Of a stretch of DNA of 49,561 bases, positions 854 to 49,561 are shown piece after piece; position 1 is the stretch's first letter, and every line of letters begins with the position of its first letter. Origin of the DNA: a virus; the IMG/VR virus record IMGVR_UViG_3300045988_174153, one strand, 5' to 3'. A model generated the notes under the pieces. The model was not told where the DNA came from. It did no database searches and saw only the letters and a program-made list of their open reading frames with translations. A program made the position numbers and the translations under genes.

Positions 854-2275
854 TTATACAGCCACGGGGGCCTTGATGGCGGGGTGGTGTTTGTACCCGG
901 CCGATGCGTAAATGTCGCTCATCTGATAGTCGAATATCGAGGGTGCCTTCTTGAGGCTGAGCTCGGGGAACGGGTAGGGGTTGCGCCCGAGTTGTTCTCG
1001 CACAGCTACCACGTGGTTCTTATATAAGTGGCAGTCGCCTCCCGTCCAGATGAACTCGCCTACGTCGTAGCCTGTTTGCTGTGCGATCATGTGCGTCAAC
1101 AGTGCGTAGGAGGCGATATTCGTAGGTAACCCAAGGAATAAATCAGCGCTTCTCTGGTACATAGAACAAGATAGACGTCCATCGTTGACATAAAACTGAA
1201 TAACGACGCCATGACACGGCGGCAGTGCTTGGAATGGTATAGCAGCGGGGGACCACAAGGTGATCACATGCCGTCGGGAGTCCGGATCATGCTTCAACGA
1301 CGCCACCACATAAGCCAGCTGGTCAACTTGGTTATACCGTAATACCATTCCGGGAGGTGCCTCCATAAACCTGAAGCCACTCCAGCCATGGTGCGTCTTC
1401 AGTTTGCCGTGCACGCAACGATGAATAGCCGAAATGTTCAGTCCTTCTTGCCTTTCAAAGGAACCGAGGGATGTTCTCATTATTTCTTCGCCACCTGGAG
1501 ACACAGCCATCACAGGGTTGGAAGTAGACATGTTGGCTTGATGTACGTCACGGCTCGTCCACATGCACGTATCAGCTCCATAGCGGTTAGACGCATGCAA
1601 CACGTCTTTATCCAGCGAGAAATCGTCGGGATACTCCTTTTTCATAACCCAATTCGGGATCCCCTTAACCTCCCGTTGGAAACAGGCGAAGGAATGCCAA
1701 CTATCCTCTACGTGTATACCTTTAGCACCATAGTGCTTATACATCTTGCACTTTTTGTTGTAACAACGCCGGATCATCTGTCTCCAAATGCCGACGAGCA
1801 TGTTATAGTCTGGGTCATTAAAATCAGCATCCCCATAATAACCCACGCCGTATACGCTACGTATATTCACGTCCTTTCCCCGATGCAAAACACCCGACAG
1901 TGGAACAGGTTTAATGGGCGGCGCGCTGAAAATCCAAGGTTTAACAGCACTCGTGTACGCTACCATTCTCATCTGACGCCCATACACAGGGCCAAGTTCC
2001 CCGTCGCGATCTGCCCACGGCTCCCACCAATTAGCGCCCAATTCCCGTAACCTGGGTTCGGACGTGGACCCCTCAATCTGCCAAAGAAGCTCAGCCTTCA
2101 CAGATTTCATGGGCACGAACTTCGTCGTGATACGCGGGAAACCGTTGTTCAGATCATAGCGGAGCTGCCGTCCGAAAACGGACAGCGTCCCCACCCCTGT
2201 GCGATCCTTCTTCTCCACACCGTTCTTCAGCACGTCGGCGAGAAGATCTTCATACTGCCTGTCAATCGTATTCAT
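854..2275 (-). CDS. thyA: Thymidylate synthase ThyA carrying an in-frame insertion of about 200 aa
   Basis: Conserved ThyA blocks: MNTIDRQYEDLL..DRTGVGTLSVFG..GPVYGRQMR, then the insertion, then DQL..LKHDPDSRRHVITLW..PPCHGVVIQFYV..YQRSADLFLGLPTNIASYALLTHMIA..GGDCHLYKNH..HPAIKAPVAV. The ATG at 2275 overlaps the nrdH stop (TGATG). The first 87 codons of the track ORF are upstream read-through. Confidence 0.9.
   Translation of the reverse strand: MNTIDRQYEDLLADVLKNGVEKKDRTGVGTLSVFGRQLRYDLNNGFPRITTKFVPMKSVKAELLWQIEGSTSEPRLRELGANWWEPWADRDGELGPVYGRQMRMVAYTSAVKPWIFSAPPIKPVPLSGVLHRGKDVNIRSVYGVGYYGDADFNDPDYNMLVGIWRQMIRRCYNKKCKMYKHYGAKGIHVEDSWHSFACFQREVKGIPNWVMKKEYPDDFSLDKDVLHASNRYGADTCMWTSRDVHQANMSTSNPVMAVSPGGEEIMRTSLGSFERQEGLNISAIHRCVHGKLKTHHGWSGFRFMEAPPGMVLRYNQVDQLAYVVASLKHDPDSRRHVITLWSPAAIPFQALPPCHGVVIQFYVNDGRLSCSMYQRSADLFLGLPTNIASYALLTHMIAQQTGYDVGEFIWTGGDCHLYKNHVVAVREQLGRNPYPFPELSLKKAPSIFDYQMSDIYASAGYKHHPAIKAPVAV
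1340..1966 (-). mobile_element. In-frame insertion inside thyA with homing-endonuclease-like DNA-binding motifs (boundaries approximate)
   Basis: The segment MVAYTSAVKPW...GWSGFRF(MEAPPGMVLR) has no counterpart in canonical ThyA. It contains WRQMIRRCYNKKCKMYKHYGAKGIHVEDSWHSFACF and a NUMOD/IENR-like ISAIHRCVHGKLKTHHGWSGFRF. It looks lower in GC by eye than the flanks. There is no stop across about 630 nt. Confidence 0.45.
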
Positions 2276-2499
2276 CAAACGAACTTCCTGACCATATCGG
2301 GGCGGAATCCGCTCCAATGCGTCTGGCCGATCACCACAACCGGAGCTTGCTTGTAACCGAGACCCAACACGAACGACAGAGCATCGTGATCCTCTGTAAT
2401 ATCGACCTCGTCGAAGGGGATACCCTTCTTCGTCAGATCTTTCTTCGTCATCTTGCACTGGACACAGCCAGGCTTCGTATACAGTGTTGCTTTCATCAT
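2275..2499 (-). CDS. nrdH: NrdH-like glutaredoxin-like redoxin
   Basis: 74 aa with a CVQC redox motif and a WSGFRPD C-terminal motif typical of NrdH. SD AAAGGAG lies 6 nt upstream of the ATG at 2499. Confidence 0.85.
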   Translation of the reverse strand: MMKATLYTKPGCVQCKMTKKDLTKKGIPFDEVDITEDHDALSFVLGLGYKQAPVVVIGQTHWSGFRPDMVRKFV

Positions 2500-4602: not shown

Positions 4603-6995
4603 TCGTCCACCACCATCGTGTAGAACCAACCCTTGGATTTCTTGCTTTTACCCTTGCCCCGAATGTATTCGAGCTCGACCGGACCGGAGATGAGACCCCT
4701 GCCTCGCAGCGAAGAGATGATGTTCTTGTACGTCCACTCGTCCAATTCGGGGAACTTGTCACGGACCTTCGTGCACAGAATGGCGTGATTAGCCTTGTCG
4801 CAATGTGTGCGGATGAACGTCATGACCGATTCCTGCTGTTTGACGTAGTGGCTAGCCGTCACGTCGTTGAGCGCCTTGAGAAGACACCGAACCCAATGGT
4901 TGGCGTAGTAGATAGCGTTCAGCATGTGCGTCTTGGTGATCACGCCGTCCTCTCTGTCCATGAGGCTGAATAGCCCGGCGACCTGGGGAACGGTGATGCA
5001 CAACCTGCGGAACGCCGACTCGAAGATCGACGACTTGTCCTCGACGATGTCGAAACGCTGCACGTTGAGACACCATGTCTCATAGCGGTCGAGCGCCTCA
5101 TCGTCCACGTCGAGCAGAATGCGGTTCACGTCAAGATCCCGTTCCTGAAGTCGCTGCTCCACATCGGTCACGTCGTCGGTCTTGTAGCACACACGGCACA
5201 GTTGATTAACACGACTAGCCAACGTGTGCGCGAGCTTCTGCGCTTTCCTGTCCCGATCTTTGCTGTTGCCGAACTTTCGACGGCTATTGAACATGGCAGC
5301 GATCTTCGGCTTGTCATCGCTTTTACTCTCGTTGTCTTCTTCGAGGTACGTCACCCATGTGAATCGCGTGAGGAACCCGTTCTTGAAGTTGCGCATTTCG
5401 AGGATATCGATCGACTCGTCGTAGATACCCGTGAGGATGACGTTGAGGTGTGCGTTGGCACGATCTACACCTTCAGTCGTGATACGACGCGTCATCTCGA
5501 CTTCGCCGCTGAACAGCTTGCACAAACCCGCATCGAAACCGTTCCACGACCCGCGGTTGTCCATGATGTCCCGGAACTTGTCTTGAATCTCGTCGAGCGC
5601 CATATACGTAGGCGTGTTGTGGAAGGGAGCGATGTCGCGTTTCATGGCTTGGATAGTGGAGTCGCTCGCCACTTTGATGCTATTGGTACGCCCTATCAGG
5701 GCACCGCACCGGTCGATGACCGTCTGAGCCCCGTTGACGGCCGTGGTCTTGTGCGCAGTACCGGAGGGGCCGAGGATGAGCGGCCAGAAGCGAAGCCCCT
5801 GCTCATCGTCCCCTGTCGTGTTGATCGACCCAAAGGCGCCGATCGTCGTAGCCATCGTCACAATGCCCAGCGCGGCGTGATATGCGTCTGCAGTGTCCGT
5901 CACTGTGCGACCGTAATCGATGTAGTCTTTGATGAACGTCGGGTTGTCATCGCTCTCGACGAAGGCCACCTCGTCGTCTGTGAGAAGCTGTATCTCGCCC
6001 GTCTGATATTCGCGAATAGCGTTTGCGAAGCTCTCATCTCCGAGGGCGATCCCGTTCTCATCAAGGTGCGTGAAGCTGTCCTTGTACTCCTTACTGAACT
6101 TCTCGACCTCTTTCCACGTGCACTGCTCCCAGTTGTCGCGCTTCGGGATCGCGTGGCCTTCTTTGGTTTTCCGGCCGGCGTAGATGGGGTTGTACTTGTT
6201 GCAGTGTGCGCGGAGCATCAGCTGATACACTTCGTTGTCGGTAAACGTAGACCGGAAGAGCTCCATCTGAAATTTCTTGGCCGTCTGGGACCAACTCTGA
6301 CGCCCGTCCTCTATCTCGTCGAGATACATAGACCGTAGTGACTGCGTCTTAAGTTTGTCCTCGATGACTCGAAGCTGCTCGTCATCGCACATTGGAGGTG
6401 CTTCTCCGACCTTCTTAGCCTCTTCAAGGCGCACAACGGGGTAGGCCGCCTTGATCTCGTCCAGTGTGTAGACGGCGCCGGTGTTCTCCACCACACGCAC
6501 GGGGTAGTCGGCGCCATACTTCGTGTTGACGGAGCCCGGCACGCGGAGCAGCTTGGACGCCTGCCATCCGGAGTCGCACCCCTTGTCGCGATGCTTCTGG
6601 TAGATAGACCTCGCTACCTCGGAGCACTCGGACAGCGAGTGTGCCTTATCGAGTACCCACCAACAATGCGTGCGGTTCCTCGATGTGCGCACAACCAAAG
6701 TCGGCTCGACCTCGAACTCGCTCGGCGGGCAGGTGTCCGCCTCAGCCCATACGACACCGCACATGGCCCCCTCGTCGTCGCCCGAACGGCTCTTACCCGT
6801 GAACACGCCGACCGAGCAGTAGGTGTTCTCATCTTCACGAATGGACAGGTAGCGCTGTGCGAGGTCGCGCTTGGCCGGCCAGGCGATGAACTTGCTTTTG
6901 ACAGTCTCTTCCTCGTCGAGGGGATCCATCGTCACAATGTTGATGTAACCCTCGATGTCTTTGTATATCACGTCCAGGAATTCTATTGCTTCCAT
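4599..6995 (-). CDS. Primase-polymerase (AEP-type) fused to a P-loop helicase-like domain (DUF3987-like)
   Basis: N-terminal part has VWAEAD, TSRNRTHCWWVL and LLRVPGSVNTKYG (AEP prim-pol-like). Central part has Walker A-like GPSGTAHKT and Walker B-like YMALDEIQ. Strong SD GAAAGGAAGAG precedes the ATG at 6995. Confidence 0.7.
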   Translation of the reverse strand: MEAIEFLDVIYKDIEGYINIVTMDPLDEEETVKSKFIAWPAKRDLAQRYLSIREDENTYCSVGVFTGKSRSGDDEGAMCGVVWAEADTCPPSEFEVEPTLVVRTSRNRTHCWWVLDKAHSLSECSEVARSIYQKHRDKGCDSGWQASKLLRVPGSVNTKYGADYPVRVVENTGAVYTLDEIKAAYPVVRLEEAKKVGEAPPMCDDEQLRVIEDKLKTQSLRSMYLDEIEDGRQSWSQTAKKFQMELFRSTFTDNEVYQLMLRAHCNKYNPIYAGRKTKEGHAIPKRDNWEQCTWKEVEKFSKEYKDSFTHLDENGIALGDESFANAIREYQTGEIQLLTDDEVAFVESDDNPTFIKDYIDYGRTVTDTADAYHAALGIVTMATTIGAFGSINTTGDDEQGLRFWPLILGPSGTAHKTTAVNGAQTVIDRCGALIGRTNSIKVASDSTIQAMKRDIAPFHNTPTYMALDEIQDKFRDIMDNRGSWNGFDAGLCKLFSGEVEMTRRITTEGVDRANAHLNVILTGIYDESIDILEMRNFKNGFLTRFTWVTYLEEDNESKSDDKPKIAAMFNSRRKFGNSKDRDRKAQKLAHTLASRVNQLCRVCYKTDDVTDVEQRLQERDLDVNRILLDVDDEALDRYETWCLNVQRFDIVEDKSSIFESAFRRLCITVPQVAGLFSLMDREDGVITKTHMLNAIYYANHWVRCLLKALNDVTASHYVKQQESVMTFIRTHCDKANHAILCTKVRDKFPELDEWTYKNIISSLRGRGLISGPVELEYIRGKGKSKKSKGWFYTMVVDE

Positions 6996-7039
6996 TTTCT
7001 CTTCCTTTCTCTTCCGAGCCGGCGTTGTCTTATAGAGCA

Positions 7040-7064
7040 GGAACGGCCCCGTTGGGGCCGTTCC
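7040..7064 (-). terminator. GC-rich hairpin downstream of the 7078 gene
   Basis: GGAACGGCCCC gtt GGGGCCGTTCC, an 11-bp stem in the intergenic gap. Confidence 0.55.
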
Positions 7065-7077
7065 TTACTCCTTCCTC

Positions 7078-7677
7078 TTAACCGATGCTGAACTTCCTCG
7101 TCGTGCACCCGGACGGCTGAACCTTAGCCGTGGGTGCGTCCTGCACGACCTTGGGCTTCAGCGGCTCGCCGAGCTGCTCTAGCTCTCGCTTGCCATCGTC
7201 CACATAGTAGGACTCGACTGTGGCGTTGACGTAGCCCCTATCGTTGTGGCGGTTACCGATTTTGACGAGAACCGTCTGGTCGGGGTCGACCAGTTCGGTT
7301 TCGTCCTCGGGGATCAGGAAGCCCTCGTCGGGGTCGTAGGCGCCGACAGCCTCCCAGAAGTTCGGGAAGCTGTAGTTGAGCTTGCCGTTCTTCCAGTGCG
7401 GTTGAAGCGGGACGTTGAAGTCCTTGACGATGGCGCCGTCGTAGTCGTCGGTCGGGCCTTCGATGATCTTCAGGTCGACGATGAGGCGGGGCAGCCCGGC
7501 GTTGGCAGCAGACTTGTACTCGCCCTTCTCCACGTCGCAGATGATCGCTCGGTAAACCCCGGGCGCAGGAACCTTGACGGCCCCACCGCGACCCCCGAAG
7601 TGGCCGTCGGCTCCGAGAGCGGACTTGAGTTCCTTGTCGTCGAGTTTGAATGCCTTGTAAGCGGGTTTGCGTACCAT
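7078..7677 (-). CDS. DUF669-like protein (putative ssDNA-binding partner of the Sak4-like ATPase)
   Basis: ATG 7677 with SD GAGAGGAG. It lies directly downstream of an AAA_24-type ATPase, a pairing common in phages. The functional assignment is from synteny only. Confidence 0.5.
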   Translation of the reverse strand: MVRKPAYKAFKLDDKELKSALGADGHFGGRGGAVKVPAPGVYRAIICDVEKGEYKSAANAGLPRLIVDLKIIEGPTDDYDGAIVKDFNVPLQPHWKNGKLNYSFPNFWEAVGAYDPDEGFLIPEDETELVDPDQTVLVKIGNRHNDRGYVNATVESYYVDDGKRELEQLGEPLKPKVVQDAPTAKVQPSGCTTRKFSIG

Positions 7678-7691
7678 AATGTTCTCCTCTC

Positions 7692-8459
7692 TCAGTGGTT
7701 GTCGCAAAGCTTCCAGAGCTTTTCGATGGTCAGATCCTCCACGAAGGGAGGAAGGTTGAAGCGGTTCTTGGCCCCGATCGTCCGGGATGCGAACATCTGC
7801 GCTTCCGTGTGCGACTCGCCGGTTTTCCGGTCGGTGTCCAGTGACAAATGTACCACCACGTCGGGCGTCTGTCCAACCTTAGCCCGCGAACCGGATCCGC
7901 GCCAGGCGAAGTCGGCCACCCCGTTGTCGTCGGTCTTCTGGTGGACGACGAGAATGGACAGCACACCGGCGTCCTTCAGAAGCGGGAAGATCCCATTCGA
8001 GCCGGTGGTCTTCTTCGCCGCCTCCGTCCAGATGGCGAACTTGTTGGGGTTCTGCTTGGCCATCTCGACGGCTTCGAAGTGATCCGCACACCAGTCGTTA
8101 TACACGTTGAGCGGGTCGATGACGATCGTCTTGTACTCACGAGGCATCTCCCCTGTGAGGAAGGCCACAAGAATGCGGTCCGTGTTGTGGATCCACCCTT
8201 CTTCCTTAATCATGCCCTCCGGTATCGGCATGTTCTTAGGCCTGACGATGTCGATGTTCTCCGGCGGAACATCGCGTGTAACGCCTGTCGTGCTGCCTTC
8301 GAGATCGAGGTACAACACAGGCGAGGTCGGTGCGAATTTGGCCGCTGATGCGGCGAACGTCGTTTTCCCCTGACCGTAGTCGGAGTAGACGAGGATCTGC
8401 TCGGGTTTGCTGAGTTCGTCGGGTTTGATGATGAATGATTCGATGTCGAAATCTGTCAT
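7692..8459 (-). CDS. Sak4-like / AAA_24 RecA-fold ATPase
   Basis: Walker A YSDYGQGKTTFA and Walker B-like TIVIDPLN. About 255 aa, typical phage recombination ATPase size and context. Confidence 0.7.
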   Translation of the reverse strand: MTDFDIESFIIKPDELSKPEQILVYSDYGQGKTTFAASAAKFAPTSPVLYLDLEGSTTGVTRDVPPENIDIVRPKNMPIPEGMIKEEGWIHNTDRILVAFLTGEMPREYKTIVIDPLNVYNDWCADHFEAVEMAKQNPNKFAIWTEAAKKTTGSNGIFPLLKDAGVLSILVVHQKTDDNGVADFAWRGSGSRAKVGQTPDVVVHLSLDTDRKTGESHTEAQMFASRTIGAKNRFNLPPFVEDLTIEKLWKLCDNH

Positions 8460-8794
8460 TCGTCTTCTCCTTTCTCTTGACGTACGTAAAGCTGCTCTGT
8501 GCTCTTAAGGCACTGAAGATATTCCCCTGCCGAAGCCAGTGATTTCACTCTCTTCGGATCCAGCTTTTGAACATAGCAACGTCGAAGCGTATCTCCAGGT
8601 AGAGCCTTTTCAGCCTTCGATATATCGAAACGGTGAACCTCCCTTCGCGTAACTATGTATGGTCCTGCAACACCGGACTCTCCAACCTGCAGCCTTTGCT
8701 TGATAGCTGCAGCGAGTTCCTTCTTCCTCTCTTCGAGGCTGTCGATGAGCCCCGATATATAACCGTATTCGAGAATGTCGTCCTGTTCTTTCAT
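8456..8794 (-). CDS. Hypothetical protein
   Basis: 112-aa ORF whose stop overlaps the downstream ATG (ATGA). Composition looks coding. Confidence 0.7.
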   Translation of the reverse strand: MKEQDDILEYGYISGLIDSLEERKKELAAAIKQRLQVGESGVAGPYIVTRREVHRFDISKAEKALPGDTLRRCYVQKLDPKRVKSLASAGEYLQCLKSTEQLYVRQEKGEDE

Positions 8795-8807
8795 ACGATA
8801 ACACCGC

Positions 8808-9545
8808 CTACGTGGTTTTCTTAACAGCTAGCACGTTGCAACGGTAACAACCTGGGTATGACGGGAAATCCGTGAAGCCATCGCACAGGGCATCGATGAT
8901 GTGCTGCCCGCGCTGCCACACCCGCTCGGCTTTCTCACGGTCATAGTCAAGTGTGAAAATCTCCACATCGGACACTTGCGAAGCATCCCTCGGGATAAAA
9001 ACGACTTTGATCTTGTGCACCGTCCCCTCGCCGTCGCGGCGCTCCTTACCGAGCGCGTAGAGGTGGGTCTGTGCGACGTAGGCGATGTACTTGGCTTTAG
9101 CGCTGTCACCCGTTACGTCCGGAACATCTCCGTGCATTGAGAACACCGCGCTGAGCGCCTTCAGCTTGGAGCGGGTGGTCGTCTTGTAATCGACGATCGT
9201 CCCGTCCTCAGGGTCGTAGGCGTCGGCCGTGGACCGGATCAGTCCGTAGTTCTCGTAGAGGCCGAGCTCGAAGCGCTGTTCCAACTCCCACTTGGGGAAG
9301 AGCCGCTTCGCCCAGTACTCCAAACCCCGGTGGATGTCGGTTCCGATCCTAGCGCCCATAACGAAGTTGGACTCCCGCATCTCGCGCGGCACCAACTCGA
9401 CCCCGCTCTTGTCCTTGATACCAGGAAGGATGTCCTCGGCCAGACACAGCGCACACGGGTTGGAGAGGTTCGAGGCGCCCACCCGGATCTGCTTGTCACG
9501 CCGCGTCTGCGGCGTGAACAGCGATAGTAGTTCGTCGTTCCTCAT
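8808..9545 (-). CDS. PD-(D/E)XK exonuclease, Cas4/RecB-like with Cys cluster
   Basis: Motifs IVDYKTT and QTHLYA. N-terminal NPCALC plus C-terminal CDG..PGCYRC cysteines are consistent with a Cas4-type Fe-S nuclease. Confidence 0.7.
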   Translation of the reverse strand: MRNDELLSLFTPQTRRDKQIRVGASNLSNPCALCLAEDILPGIKDKSGVELVPREMRESNFVMGARIGTDIHRGLEYWAKRLFPKWELEQRFELGLYENYGLIRSTADAYDPEDGTIVDYKTTTRSKLKALSAVFSMHGDVPDVTGDSAKAKYIAYVAQTHLYALGKERRDGEGTVHKIKVVFIPRDASQVSDVEIFTLDYDREKAERVWQRGQHIIDALCDGFTDFPSYPGCYRCNVLAVKKTT

Positions 9546-9910
9546 ACCAGTTGAAGCTCCCAGCCTTTGTTAATCGCGAAGTTGATAATGTGTTTGCACT
9601 CGATGACAGCAGGTGTGTCGCCGGTGTTGTGCAAGATGATCGGACCGTCCTTGTATTTCAGTGTAGTGTGCGGTTCGAGTGCCGCCCGTTGAGTGTCTCG
9701 CTGGCCCCACACGTGTTGAATGAACGGCACGGGTGCAAAATAGAGCAGATCGTTTTCCATGAGGTTGCGCATGTCCGCTAGCCCAAGGCAGTACTCTGCA
9801 CCGTTAACGTCCAACCACTTCTTAAGCGCAGGGATGAAGGCATACCGTTTATCCAAATTGTCAAACAGTATGAAGTTGTCCTTTAACTGCTCTTTAATGT
9901 AGTCGTCCAT
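9542..9910 (-). CDS. Hypothetical protein
   Basis: ATG 9910 preceded by GAGAAAGGAGGAACGAA. The upstream part of the track ORF is Ser/Thr-rich read-through. Confidence 0.7.
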   Translation of the reverse strand: MDDYIKEQLKDNFILFDNLDKRYAFIPALKKWLDVNGAEYCLGLADMRNLMENDLLYFAPVPFIQHVWGQRDTQRAALEPHTTLKYKDGPIILHNTGDTPAVIECKHIINFAINKGWELQLV

Positions 9911-48542: not shown

Positions 48543-49561
48543 GCCTTCACGCTCTCCTTCTCCGTGAAGCACGTCCGCTCGGCATACTCGCCCTTCTTCC
48601 CGATGTTGAACGACTGCACAGGCCTGAAGTAACCCATGACACGGGTCCACACCTCACACGCCTCTCCGCACTTCTCGCACACGAAATGCTCACCCGCAAG
48701 ATAGCCGTGGTTGGGGCAAATCGAGAAGGTGGGCGTGATGGTGATGTAGGGAAGATGGAAGTTGGTGAGCGCCCTCTTAACGAGCTTGGCGCACACAGCA
48801 CCGGACGAGATCTTCTCGTTCATGTACAGGTGCAGGACGGTGCCGCCCGTGTACATAGATTGAAGGTCGGCTTGTTCCTCCAGAGCTTGGAAGGCGTCCT
48901 GCGTGTGCGACACAGGAAGCTGGGAGGAATTCGTGTAGTAGGGGTTCTTATCCGTACCGGCCTGGATGATGTTGGAGAACCGCTTGCGGTCTTCCTTGGC
49001 GAACCTGTATGTGGTGCCCTCCGCGGGGGTCGCCTCCAGGTTGTACATGTTTCCAGTCTTCTCCTGATATTGGACGAGGCGCTCCCTCATGTGCGCGAGG
49101 AGCCTCTTCGCAAAGGCGTGACCCCACTCGGTGGTGATGTCTTCCTTATCGTGGGTGAAGTTGCGGATGGCTTCGTTAACGCCATTGACGCCGATCGTCG
49201 AGAAGTGGTTGCCTAATCCCCCGAGGTAGCGCTTGCTGTACGGGAAGAGGCCACGCTCCATGAGCTCGGCGATCTTGATCCTCTTCTTCTCAAGCGTGGA
49301 CGAGGCGAGGTCCATAAGGTGATCCAGCCTCTCGTAGAGCGCTTCTTCGTCACCTGCGTACGTGTACCCGAGCCTTGCAGCGTTCACGGTGACGACGCCT
49401 ATGGAGCCCGTGAGCTCGGCCGAGCCGAACAAACCGTTGCCCCGCTTCAGGAGCTCGCGCAGGTCGAGCTGGAGGCGGCAGCACATCGAGCGGATCATGC
49501 CCGGGTCGAGCTCGGAGTTGATGAAGTTCTGGAAGTAGGGCAGGCCGTACTTCGCGGTCAT
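48539..49561 (-). CDS. nrdD: NrdD, C-terminal part (continues from 823..1 across the junction)
   Basis: Zn-ribbon CPNHGY..CEKCGEAC and glycyl-radical motif TRVMGYFRPV. Confidence 0.9.
   Translation of the reverse strand: MTAKYGLPYFQNFINSELDPGMIRSMCCRLQLDLRELLKRGNGLFGSAELTGSIGVVTVNAARLGYTYAGDEEALYERLDHLMDLASSTLEKKRIKIAELMERGLFPYSKRYLGGLGNHFSTIGVNGVNEAIRNFTHDKEDITTEWGHAFAKRLLAHMRERLVQYQEKTGNMYNLEATPAEGTTYRFAKEDRKRFSNIIQAGTDKNPYYTNSSQLPVSHTQDAFQALEEQADLQSMYTGGTVLHLYMNEKISSGAVCAKLVKRALTNFHLPYITITPTFSICPNHGYLAGEHFVCEKCGEACEVWTRVMGYFRPVQSFNIGKKGEYAERTCFTEKESVKA
49507..49561. repeat. 55-bp end overlap identical to 1..55
   Basis: Direct comparison. Confidence 0.95.

Follow-up and report, generated by a model that had tools for sequence, protein, structure and literature searches.

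How can a phage thymidylate synthase carry, in frame and in one unbroken gene, some two hundred extra residues that resemble a homing endonuclease, when neither an intron nor an intein appears to be there to remove them? The question is raised by the thyA gene of IMG/VR virus record IMGVR_UViG_3300045988_174153, whose 49,561 nucleotides (nt), taken as a whole, are called the window below, and for which an earlier sequence-only reading had reported an in-frame insertion with homing-endonuclease-like DNA-binding motifs. The answer that we favour, at a rough probability of 0.6, is that the insert is a mobile element of the homing-endonuclease type that lives unspliced in a surface hairpin of ThyA, its nuclease activity being a prediction. 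The gene and its parts are as follows.

854-2275, minus strand: thyA coding sequence, 473 amino acids (aa) plus stop, chimeric with the embedded module (open reading frame and translation).
1967-2275, minus strand: N-terminal part of ThyA, aa 1-103, ending GPVYGRQMR (alignment with E. coli and other ThyAs).
1325-1966, minus strand: in-frame insert, a complete homing-endonuclease-like module of the PHROG 2081 type (profile match to PHROG 2081, given below; AlphaFold 2 model of the insert alone).
857-1324, minus strand: C-terminal part of ThyA, aa 318-473, with DQL..., DPDSRR, PPCHG with the catalytic Cys354, YQRSAD... and GGDCHLY (invariant catalytic residues in alignments; motif coordinates).

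The enzyme around the insert looks complete. The Pfam family PF00303 (Thymidylat_synt) matches the product in two pieces (E 8e-95, 317 bits against a cut-off of 24.3), the NCBIfam equivalog model NF002497 for thymidylate synthase scores 341 bits against a cut-off of 327, and the counterparts of the E. coli catalytic and substrate residues (R21, E58, Y94, R126/R127, C146, H147, R166, D169, N177, H207 and Y209) all stand in invariant or, at 90% or more in one alignment, near-invariant columns of the alignments with E. coli ThyA and 41 relatives; the earlier statement that all canonical ThyA blocks are present is thereby confirmed. The full-length AlphaFold 2 (AF2) model, built from a 42-sequence alignment, has a mean predicted local distance difference test score (pLDDT) of 89.8 and a predicted template modelling score (pTM) of 0.87, and its ThyA core superimposes on E. 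coli thymidylate synthase (TS) with a target-normalised template modelling (TM) score of 0.94. Judged by alignment and model, the chimeric protein keeps an intact core, and dTMP-forming activity is predicted for it.

The insert comprises 214 aa (aa 104-317) between GPVYGRQMR (aa 95-103) and DQLAYV (from aa 318), at a place where E. coli ThyA has ten residues, AWPTPDGRHI, in a surface hairpin (E. coli residues about 100-109). This bears out the reported in-frame insertion of about 200 aa in a surface loop where E. coli-type enzymes have about a dozen residues; of the span first proposed, 1340-1966, the boundary on the upstream side, 1966, stood, and the other moved by 15 nt to 1325. Homologues free of the insertion, which had been proposed as the way to define the boundaries, were found in two sister contigs, L017 and L018. 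The insert is also AT-richer, as had been observed, with a GC content of 48.4% against 55.0% in the rest of thyA and, at third codon positions, of 52.8% against 66.0%. The structural check that had been suggested returned a separate and confident domain: modelled alone by AF2, the insert reaches a pLDDT of 94.4, and strands at aa 104-111 and 311-318 (DSSP of the AF2 models) lead out of and back into the ThyA core. In the model these two strands would pair as a two-stranded stalk that extends the ThyA hairpin, with the module projecting on it.

The insert is not a single case. The module is open and in frame in about 100 ThyA protein clusters (41 at 90% identity and 62 representatives at 50% identity), and it lies between YGxQW and DQ in the ThyAs of the Actinomycetaceae-type phage of the window, of Bacillus Herelleviridae, of a Klebsiella jumbo phage and of an E. 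coli Krischvirus. The host proteins, 517 aa long in the Klebsiella jumbo phage, 564 aa in Bacillus phage 015DV002, 548 aa in Bacillus phage Kioshi and 406 aa in Krischvirus E26, are entered in database records under the plain name of thymidylate synthase. Their cores belong to different lineages, of the Bacillus-phage type in 015DV002 and of the Actinomycetaceae type in the window, and an additional insert, upstream of the module, is found in the Klebsiella and Krischvirus cores but not in the others. No internal start for a separate endonuclease was found, Met104 at the start of the insert not being conserved among relatives, and no in-frame start preceded by a Shine-Dalgarno sequence was seen by eye at the insert of the window or at the 015DV002 junction; the alignments of continuous frames show the module to be translated as part of ThyA. 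The product of Kioshi gene 41 (L008 1365-3011), annotated as thymidylate synthase, has a very divergent core, with QECA-WSTNW in place of LPPCH..FQFYV, and may be a ThyA-family enzyme of other specificity.

The sister contigs make it possible to ask whether the insert has moved. L017 (49,136 bp, with the same gene order as the window) and L018 both encode an insert-free ThyA of 268 aa. From the polymerase gene across the glutaredoxin gene into the first 180 nt of thyA, the window is 85-97% identical to them; identity falls to 33-67% from about 2095 to the insert and from the insert to about 1100, and then recovers, which delimits the following tract.

1100-2095, no strand assigned: foreign tract made up of the insert and the thyA coding sequence that flanks it, over about 130 nt upstream and about 225 nt downstream (DNA identity to L017 and L018).

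The breakpoints of this tract lie in the conserved coding segments for ELLW and YQRSxD...NIASY. Compared with L011 (6000-7422), a sister that itself bears the insert, the segment 1100-2095 is 62-80% identical against about 90% for the backbone, and synonymous divergence (pS) is 0.87, and thus saturated, in the flanks against 0.40 in the distal parts of thyA, with little amino-acid change. The divergence of the flanks from L017 and L018 and from L011 indicates that the module, with the sequence directly flanking it, has had a history of its own, apart from that of the surrounding genome, and since L011 and the window differ by 20-38% exactly over the module and its flanks, more than one allele of the element circulates in this phage population. 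In the insert-free L018, the primase/DUF3987 and DNA polymerase genes (5309-9761) are each called in two or three pieces (274 + 456 aa; 491 + 181 aa), where the window has single open reading frames; frameshifts, assembly errors or other insertions could be the reason.

A second pair, in Bacillus phages, differs by the insert at closer range. Over 4.7 kb, phages 015DV002, with the insert, and 015DV004, without it, match at 98-100% identity, the exception being 810 nt inserted in thyA; upstream of the insert they do not differ up to the junction, and about 150 nt on the downstream side are only 62-72% identical. Over this 150-nt tract 015DV002 has 63-67% identity to the insert-free phages 015DV004, 000TH009 and SIOphi, which are 80-95% identical to each other. 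As 015DV002 is the outlier and its three insert-free relatives agree, the foreign tract arrived with the insert, and from these alignments 015DV002 is a recent recipient. Foreign thyA sequence adjoins the insert in both sister pairs, over 130-225 nt, on both sides in the window and on one side in 015DV002, a pattern that in genome comparison is the signature of homing with co-conversion. As far as sequence can tell, the two comparisons show that phage genomes which are otherwise close relatives have received the module along with adjacent thyA sequence. Bacillus phage Chotacabras (L004 1393-3330, genes 46-44) has a free-standing homologue of 241 aa upstream of an insert-free thyA, with a 78-aa gene between them; the arrangement is a possible intermediate between the free-standing and embedded states.

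What moves with these flanks is a member of a very large protein family. A word-based protein search with the insert alone gave no match, and the 41 ThyA clusters at 90% identity were found with a profile of four inserts. Residues 29-208 of the insert align to positions 70-259 of the 433 in the PHROG 2081 profile ('HNH endonuclease') at E 9.4e-42, a HMMER scan of 1.84 billion representatives returned 11,380 family relatives at E<=1e-3, and tblastn with the insert found matches in 1,038 phage records. In the best 150 family representatives at 50% identity, ThyA is the only host protein; 62 of them are complete ThyAs in which the module separates the N from the C part, and 81, mostly 145-300 aa long, lack a ThyA part. 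Free-standing homologues of 158-248 aa occupy places typical of homing-endonuclease genes (HEGs) in three phages, lying between nrdB and thioredoxin in 015DV004, within the split DNA polymerase gene of Staphylococcus phage phiSA_BS1 and beside the RNA polymerase gene of Vibrio phage VBP47. A 2025 survey (PMC11878797) places PHROG 2081 proteins in the loops of group I introns in DNA polymerase genes of Bastillevirinae, and it reports that InterPro recognises DNA-binding domains alone, and no HNH domain, in these intron-encoded proteins. The best matches of the insert in BFVD are 'homing endonucleases' of Bacillus, Staphylococcus and Vibrio phages along with long thymidylate synthases.

Several residues are near-invariant across 102 embedded and 74 free-standing members, namely L-D-K-D with an acidic residue upstream, W..M..RCY, YG..G..V...W..F..F and Y(S/G)..TC.W, and since the same ones are kept in both, the embedded copies have lost nothing that the free-standing ones have. 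A rough neighbour-joining (NJ) tree of the module, indicative only, has embedded and free-standing copies clustered yet interleaved, with 13 state changes against about 60 for random labels. The insert had been read as possibly a domesticated endonuclease domain; its relation to homing-endonuclease modules stands, and it is not a fragment but a whole copy of a protein family whose free-standing members measure 145-300 aa. Close relatives of the insert in bacterial or archaeal genomes were not confirmed in one scan, no alignment-based scan having been made; the named cellular ThyAs found in a search with the core ThyA are 264-269 aa long, and no insert-bearing cluster has 'ncbi' as its genome source.

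Whether this family cuts DNA is the more difficult part of the question, and here the architecture of the insert has to be set out.

1862-1966, minus strand: N-side stalk or linker, aa 104-138 (DSSP of AF2 models).
1679-1855, minus strand: VYGVGYYG strand followed by the helical subdomain W-x2-M-x2-RCY ... Y-x2-YGxKG-x2-V-x3-W-x2-F-x2-F, aa 141-199 (motif positions).
1532-1618, minus strand: segment S-L-D-K-D ... SNRY..DTC-x-W ... Q..N, aa 220-248 (HMMER alignment to I-HmuI).
1367-1513, minus strand: NUMOD-like or helix-turn-helix (HTH) DNA-binding part, aa 255-303, including GLNISAIHRCVHGKLKTHHGWSGFRF (HHalign; PF22083).
1325-1366, minus strand: C-side stalk, aa 304-317, ending ...MEAPPGMVLRYNQV, back to the ThyA core (AF2 secondary structure).

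Both motifs quoted in the earlier description of the insert are present, the first of them ending W-x2-F-x2-F and not W-x2-F-x-F. R313 in the C-side stalk is invariant in 42 sequences; the N-side linker is the least constrained part of the insert, with a ratio of nonsynonymous to synonymous change (dN/dS) of 0.13-0.5. No further copies of the module were found in the window.

The link to known endonucleases runs through I-HmuI, the HNH nicking homing endonuclease of Bacillus phage SPO1, whose C-terminal NUMOD/HTH DNA-binding part is homologous to the insert. I-HmuI (PDB 1U3E) is the only significant Foldseek match of the insert in the PDB (E 1.9e-5 over 110 columns, with a high root mean square deviation, rmsd), HHalign aligns insert residues 135-200 with its NUMOD/HTH part (106-170) at a probability of 94.6%, and the Pfam family PF22083 (I-HmuI_NUMOD-like) matches the insert below its cut-off (E 2.6e-4) and the phiSA_BS1 homologue above it (32 bits against 27). 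These matches, with that to PHROG 2081, uphold the proposed kinship with the DNA-binding modules of homing endonucleases, and the remark that no HNH, GIY-YIG or LAGLIDADG catalytic domain can be recognised proved equally correct. The N-terminal part of I-HmuI is replaced in the insert by the helical W-M-RCY...W..F..F subdomain, and Asp74 and His75 of I-HmuI are not conserved as such when the general base H75 and the metal ligands D74 and N96 are compared. HMMER aligns 'DTCMWTSRDVHQAN' of the insert with 'TNLRWVTQKINVEN' of I-HmuI and places the 'TC.W.s...N' of the insert on I-HmuI N87-N99, 'NLRWVTQKINVEN', a register that HHalign does not support; by eye, the S-L-D-K-D of the insert falls in the HMMER register on V-V-D-H-K-D of I-HmuI. 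The segment at aa 220-248 may, tentatively, be a degenerate beta-beta-alpha motif of the His-Me-finger kind without the catalytic His. A canonical HNH assignment was not supported, as no HNH profile of Pfam or NCBIfam matched, the family motif is L-D-K-D and membership fails on the defining His. The second-best Foldseek match in the PDB is the anti-CRISPR protein AcrVA3 (9kja; E 0.026, TM 0.59 on a target of 69 residues, rmsd 2.7); it may fall in the helical subdomain, at a guessed position of about 1634-1807 in the window made without coordinates from the tool, and it may be chance.

Selection on the module is strong. Between related phages the insert has a nonsynonymous divergence (pN) of 0.10-0.13 per site against a saturated pS of 0.7-0.87, and dN/dS is about 0.04-0.12 in the clade of the window and 0.09 for the module core of the closest pair, L015 and L016; low pN against saturated pS means that a protein, and not an RNA element, is under selection. 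The module also decays. In the Krischvirus version, which is short, the HTH and several motifs are missing; it occurs in 59 of 59 close relatives in the collection, and by its sequence it looks like a fixed, decaying copy. An oral contig carries an in-frame deletion variant.

1353-1880, no strand assigned: segment missing in the in-frame deletion variant P0197/L019, 297 aa (528-nt deletion).

This deletion is bounded by a short CGG(G)GAAAGG-like repeat and leaves the stalk in place, with most of the N-side linker (aa 104-132) kept; coming from a single short oral contig, the variant is weak evidence.

These observations have to be weighed against three other explanations. Were the insert a splicing element, a non-canonical intein leaving the protein or an intron leaving the mRNA, then its conserved site in a conserved gene would be what one expects of inteins and introns, the thyA/td genes are classic hosts of group I introns, and class 2 and class 3 inteins do, as is generally known, lack an N-terminal Cys/Ser. 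We nevertheless regard splicing as very improbable. Rfam gives nothing at gathering thresholds in the whole window and nothing even at E<=10 in 700-2500, and in about 100 homologous clusters the reading frame runs through the insert from one ThyA part to the other, open, conserved and under purifying selection at the protein level, so that its openness is not chance. No intein, Hint or LAGLIDADG family is matched in Pfam at E<=10, and no intein fold appears among the Foldseek matches of the insert in the PDB; the first residue of the insert varies (M/L/H/K/N/R...), its end reads ..RYNQV followed by DQL, with Asp at +1, and there is neither His-Asn nor a conserved Cys/Ser/Thr at +1. The AF2 model gives a separate domain that is linked to the core by its first and last strands. 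The sequence-only reading was thus right in seeing neither a canonical intein nor an intron and in citing the missing in-frame stop against a group I intron, and the non-canonical splicing element that it listed as an option finds no support. IPR003669 we take to be the ThyX family and not ThyA; it is under this entry that a survey of actinobacteriophage inteins lists inteins in 'thymidylate synthase' (bioRxiv 10.1101/2025.01.02.630785). In Bacillus phage KKP_4048 (L021 1001-2183), thyA is annotated as two coding sequences about 290 nt apart, at another position; the gap is probably a group I intron of the kind reported in thyA of Bastillevirinae, in which case the same gene family hosts both solutions. 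Improbable too, though less so than splicing, is an inert passenger, a dead relic whose frame stays open for the sole reason that a stop or frameshift would abolish ThyA. It is true that an essential gene does not allow its insert to be interrupted, that the Krischvirus version is truncated with motifs lost, and that the P0197 variant suggests that ThyA can dispense with the module; a relic would, however, hardly show the amino-acid conservation seen in the clade of the window, keep every family-invariant residue in a well-folded AF2 domain or have been acquired recently by 015DV002.

The main rival is an exapted DNA-binding domain, in which catalysis has been lost and ThyA has gained a new property, such as tethering to DNA or to the replication factory, autoregulation or the blocking of a competitor's thyA, with spread only by ordinary homologous recombination or exchange of the whole gene. 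Several observations weigh against an active homing element and most of them would suit this rival. Neither Pfam nor NCBIfam finds a nuclease domain (HNH, HNH_3 or similar) in the insert or in its free-standing relatives, the general base of I-HmuI, His75, has no counterpart, K/R or D standing there in either register, and the searched literature yielded no report of nuclease activity for members of PHROG 2081. A protein of 362 aa, P0153, joins the first half of the module (aa 31-137) to an RNase_T-type exonuclease domain (aa 198-341, E 5e-11), and longer PHROG 'HNH endonuclease' profiles contain interior segments that match parts of the module. Both observations are compatible with a module that only binds DNA, and P0153 suggests that it can act as DNA-binding partner to a separate nuclease. 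The module is fixed in a large clade of oral phages, and the strong purifying selection on a clade of 43 embedded copies (rough NJ tree) would also fit a function useful to the phage; the mosaic flanks prove recombinational transfer, not nuclease-driven homing. We still hold exaptation to be unlikely: close sister phages thrive without the module, widely different ThyA lineages have gained it at one precise site along with short foreign flanks, it shows decay in Krischvirus and in the deletion variant, and its free-standing relatives sit in the loops of introns (PMC11878797) and in intergenic positions of HEGs. A domesticated or tolerated domain, one of the readings first proposed, is not the best fit; presence/absence polymorphism with co-converted flanks, together with strong purifying selection, points to an element that is still mobile.

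If the insert is a homing element, its cycle may run as follows. The chimeric protein, or the module, would recognise the insert-free thyA of co-infecting phages at the DNA encoding GPVYGxQWR...DQL and would nick or cut it there or nearby; recombinational repair from the insert-bearing allele would then copy the module along with flanking thyA sequence by co-conversion. After fixation the module could decay in frame only, as it has in the deletion variant and in Krischvirus Td. As the additional domain is tolerated by the host enzyme, such an element requires no intron or intein. To our knowledge the textbook view is that HEGs inside essential genes persist only when a ribozyme (intron) or a Hint domain (intein) removes them, and that they are otherwise intergenic. 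A bolder version, to which we give slightly less than even odds, is that the element represents a third way besides introns and inteins, an endonuclease permanently embedded without splicing, so that a bifunctional ThyA-endonuclease is itself the homing enzyme, possibly with a non-HNH centre (the invariant D-K-D and an acidic residue), and that this arrangement arose or spread repeatedly among phages of Actinobacteria, Firmicutes and Enterobacteria.

Known systems share parts of this arrangement. Inteins with a nested homing endonuclease, such as PI-SceI in yeast VMA1 and those of actinobacteriophages, likewise sit in frame at a conserved site of a conserved gene, often one of nucleotide metabolism, are translated with the host protein, occur sporadically and spread by homing with co-conversion; the ThyA insert differs in having no Hint domain, splice-junction residues or predicted excision, in apparently staying in the mature enzyme, and in having an endonuclease-like part of the I-HmuI/NUMOD lineage, not of LAGLIDADG. 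The group I introns of T4 td (I-TevI) and Bacillus mojavensis thyA (I-BmoI) use the same host gene, a known hot spot of homing, with a conserved thyA target and copying of the element and its flanks, but they are removed from the RNA by a ribozyme and encode GIY-YIG enzymes in separate reading frames, and the ThyA insert has no ribozyme, lies in one continuous frame and occupies another site. The intron-encoded and free-standing PHROG 2081 relatives match the module over its whole length, with its invariant residues and no recognisable HNH domain; they are separate genes in introns or between genes, in contrast to the ThyA module, which is fused at both ends through added linker strands. In Aeromonas phage Aeh1, a mobE-type insertion gives a two-piece nrdA, which likewise places a HEG inside an essential gene of nucleotide metabolism without a splicing element and with host function kept; there two polypeptides reassemble, whereas here one polypeptide carries an inserted domain. 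That the ThyA surface can bear extra sequence is known from Lactobacillus casei TS, with a 50-residue insert in the small domain, in the same general region and with activity kept; inserts of this type are short, are fixed in their lineage and have no relation to nucleases or mobile elements.

Among known homing elements there are in-frame ones, the inteins; what appears to be new is that excision is dispensed with. The searched literature, which left out most subscription journals, yielded no account of an unspliced homing-endonuclease module lying in frame within ThyA. If our reading is true, an element tolerated as an inserted domain would be the missing, simpler state, with a bearing on the origin of inteins and mobile introns, and it would account for the unexplained 'long' thymidylate synthases in many phage genomes. 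It would also offer protein engineering a natural case of a site-specific DNA-binding or cutting domain that works while fused at both ends within an enzyme. The locus points, moreover, to a very large uncharacterised family (>11,000 clusters) whose members may cleave DNA through a non-canonical active site. The cultured pair 015DV002 and 015DV004, which differ by the element, makes the idea directly testable.

Around the gene, DNA polymerase A, glutaredoxin, thyA and nrdD follow one another in an order that the sister contigs keep. The ThyA N-terminus reads MNTIDRQ, and the start of thyA overlaps, as ATGA, the stop of the gene upstream.

2275-2499, minus strand: NrdH/glutaredoxin-like gene, 74 aa (ends ATGA over the thyA start).

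Human oral metagenome contigs encode the same ThyA protein, and its closest cellular relatives, at about 64% identity, are the ThyAs of Actinomycetaceae (Trueperella, Arcanobacterium, Actinobaculum), which suggests, from protein similarity, a phage that infects an oral actinomycete. DNA nearly identical to the window was not found in the phage collection. Positions 1-55 of the window are identical to 49507-49561, which indicates a circular assembly of about 49.5 kb, and the window is probably a complete phage genome. An nrdD-like gene appears to span the two ends, and the sisters carry a 596-aa NrdD right after thyA.

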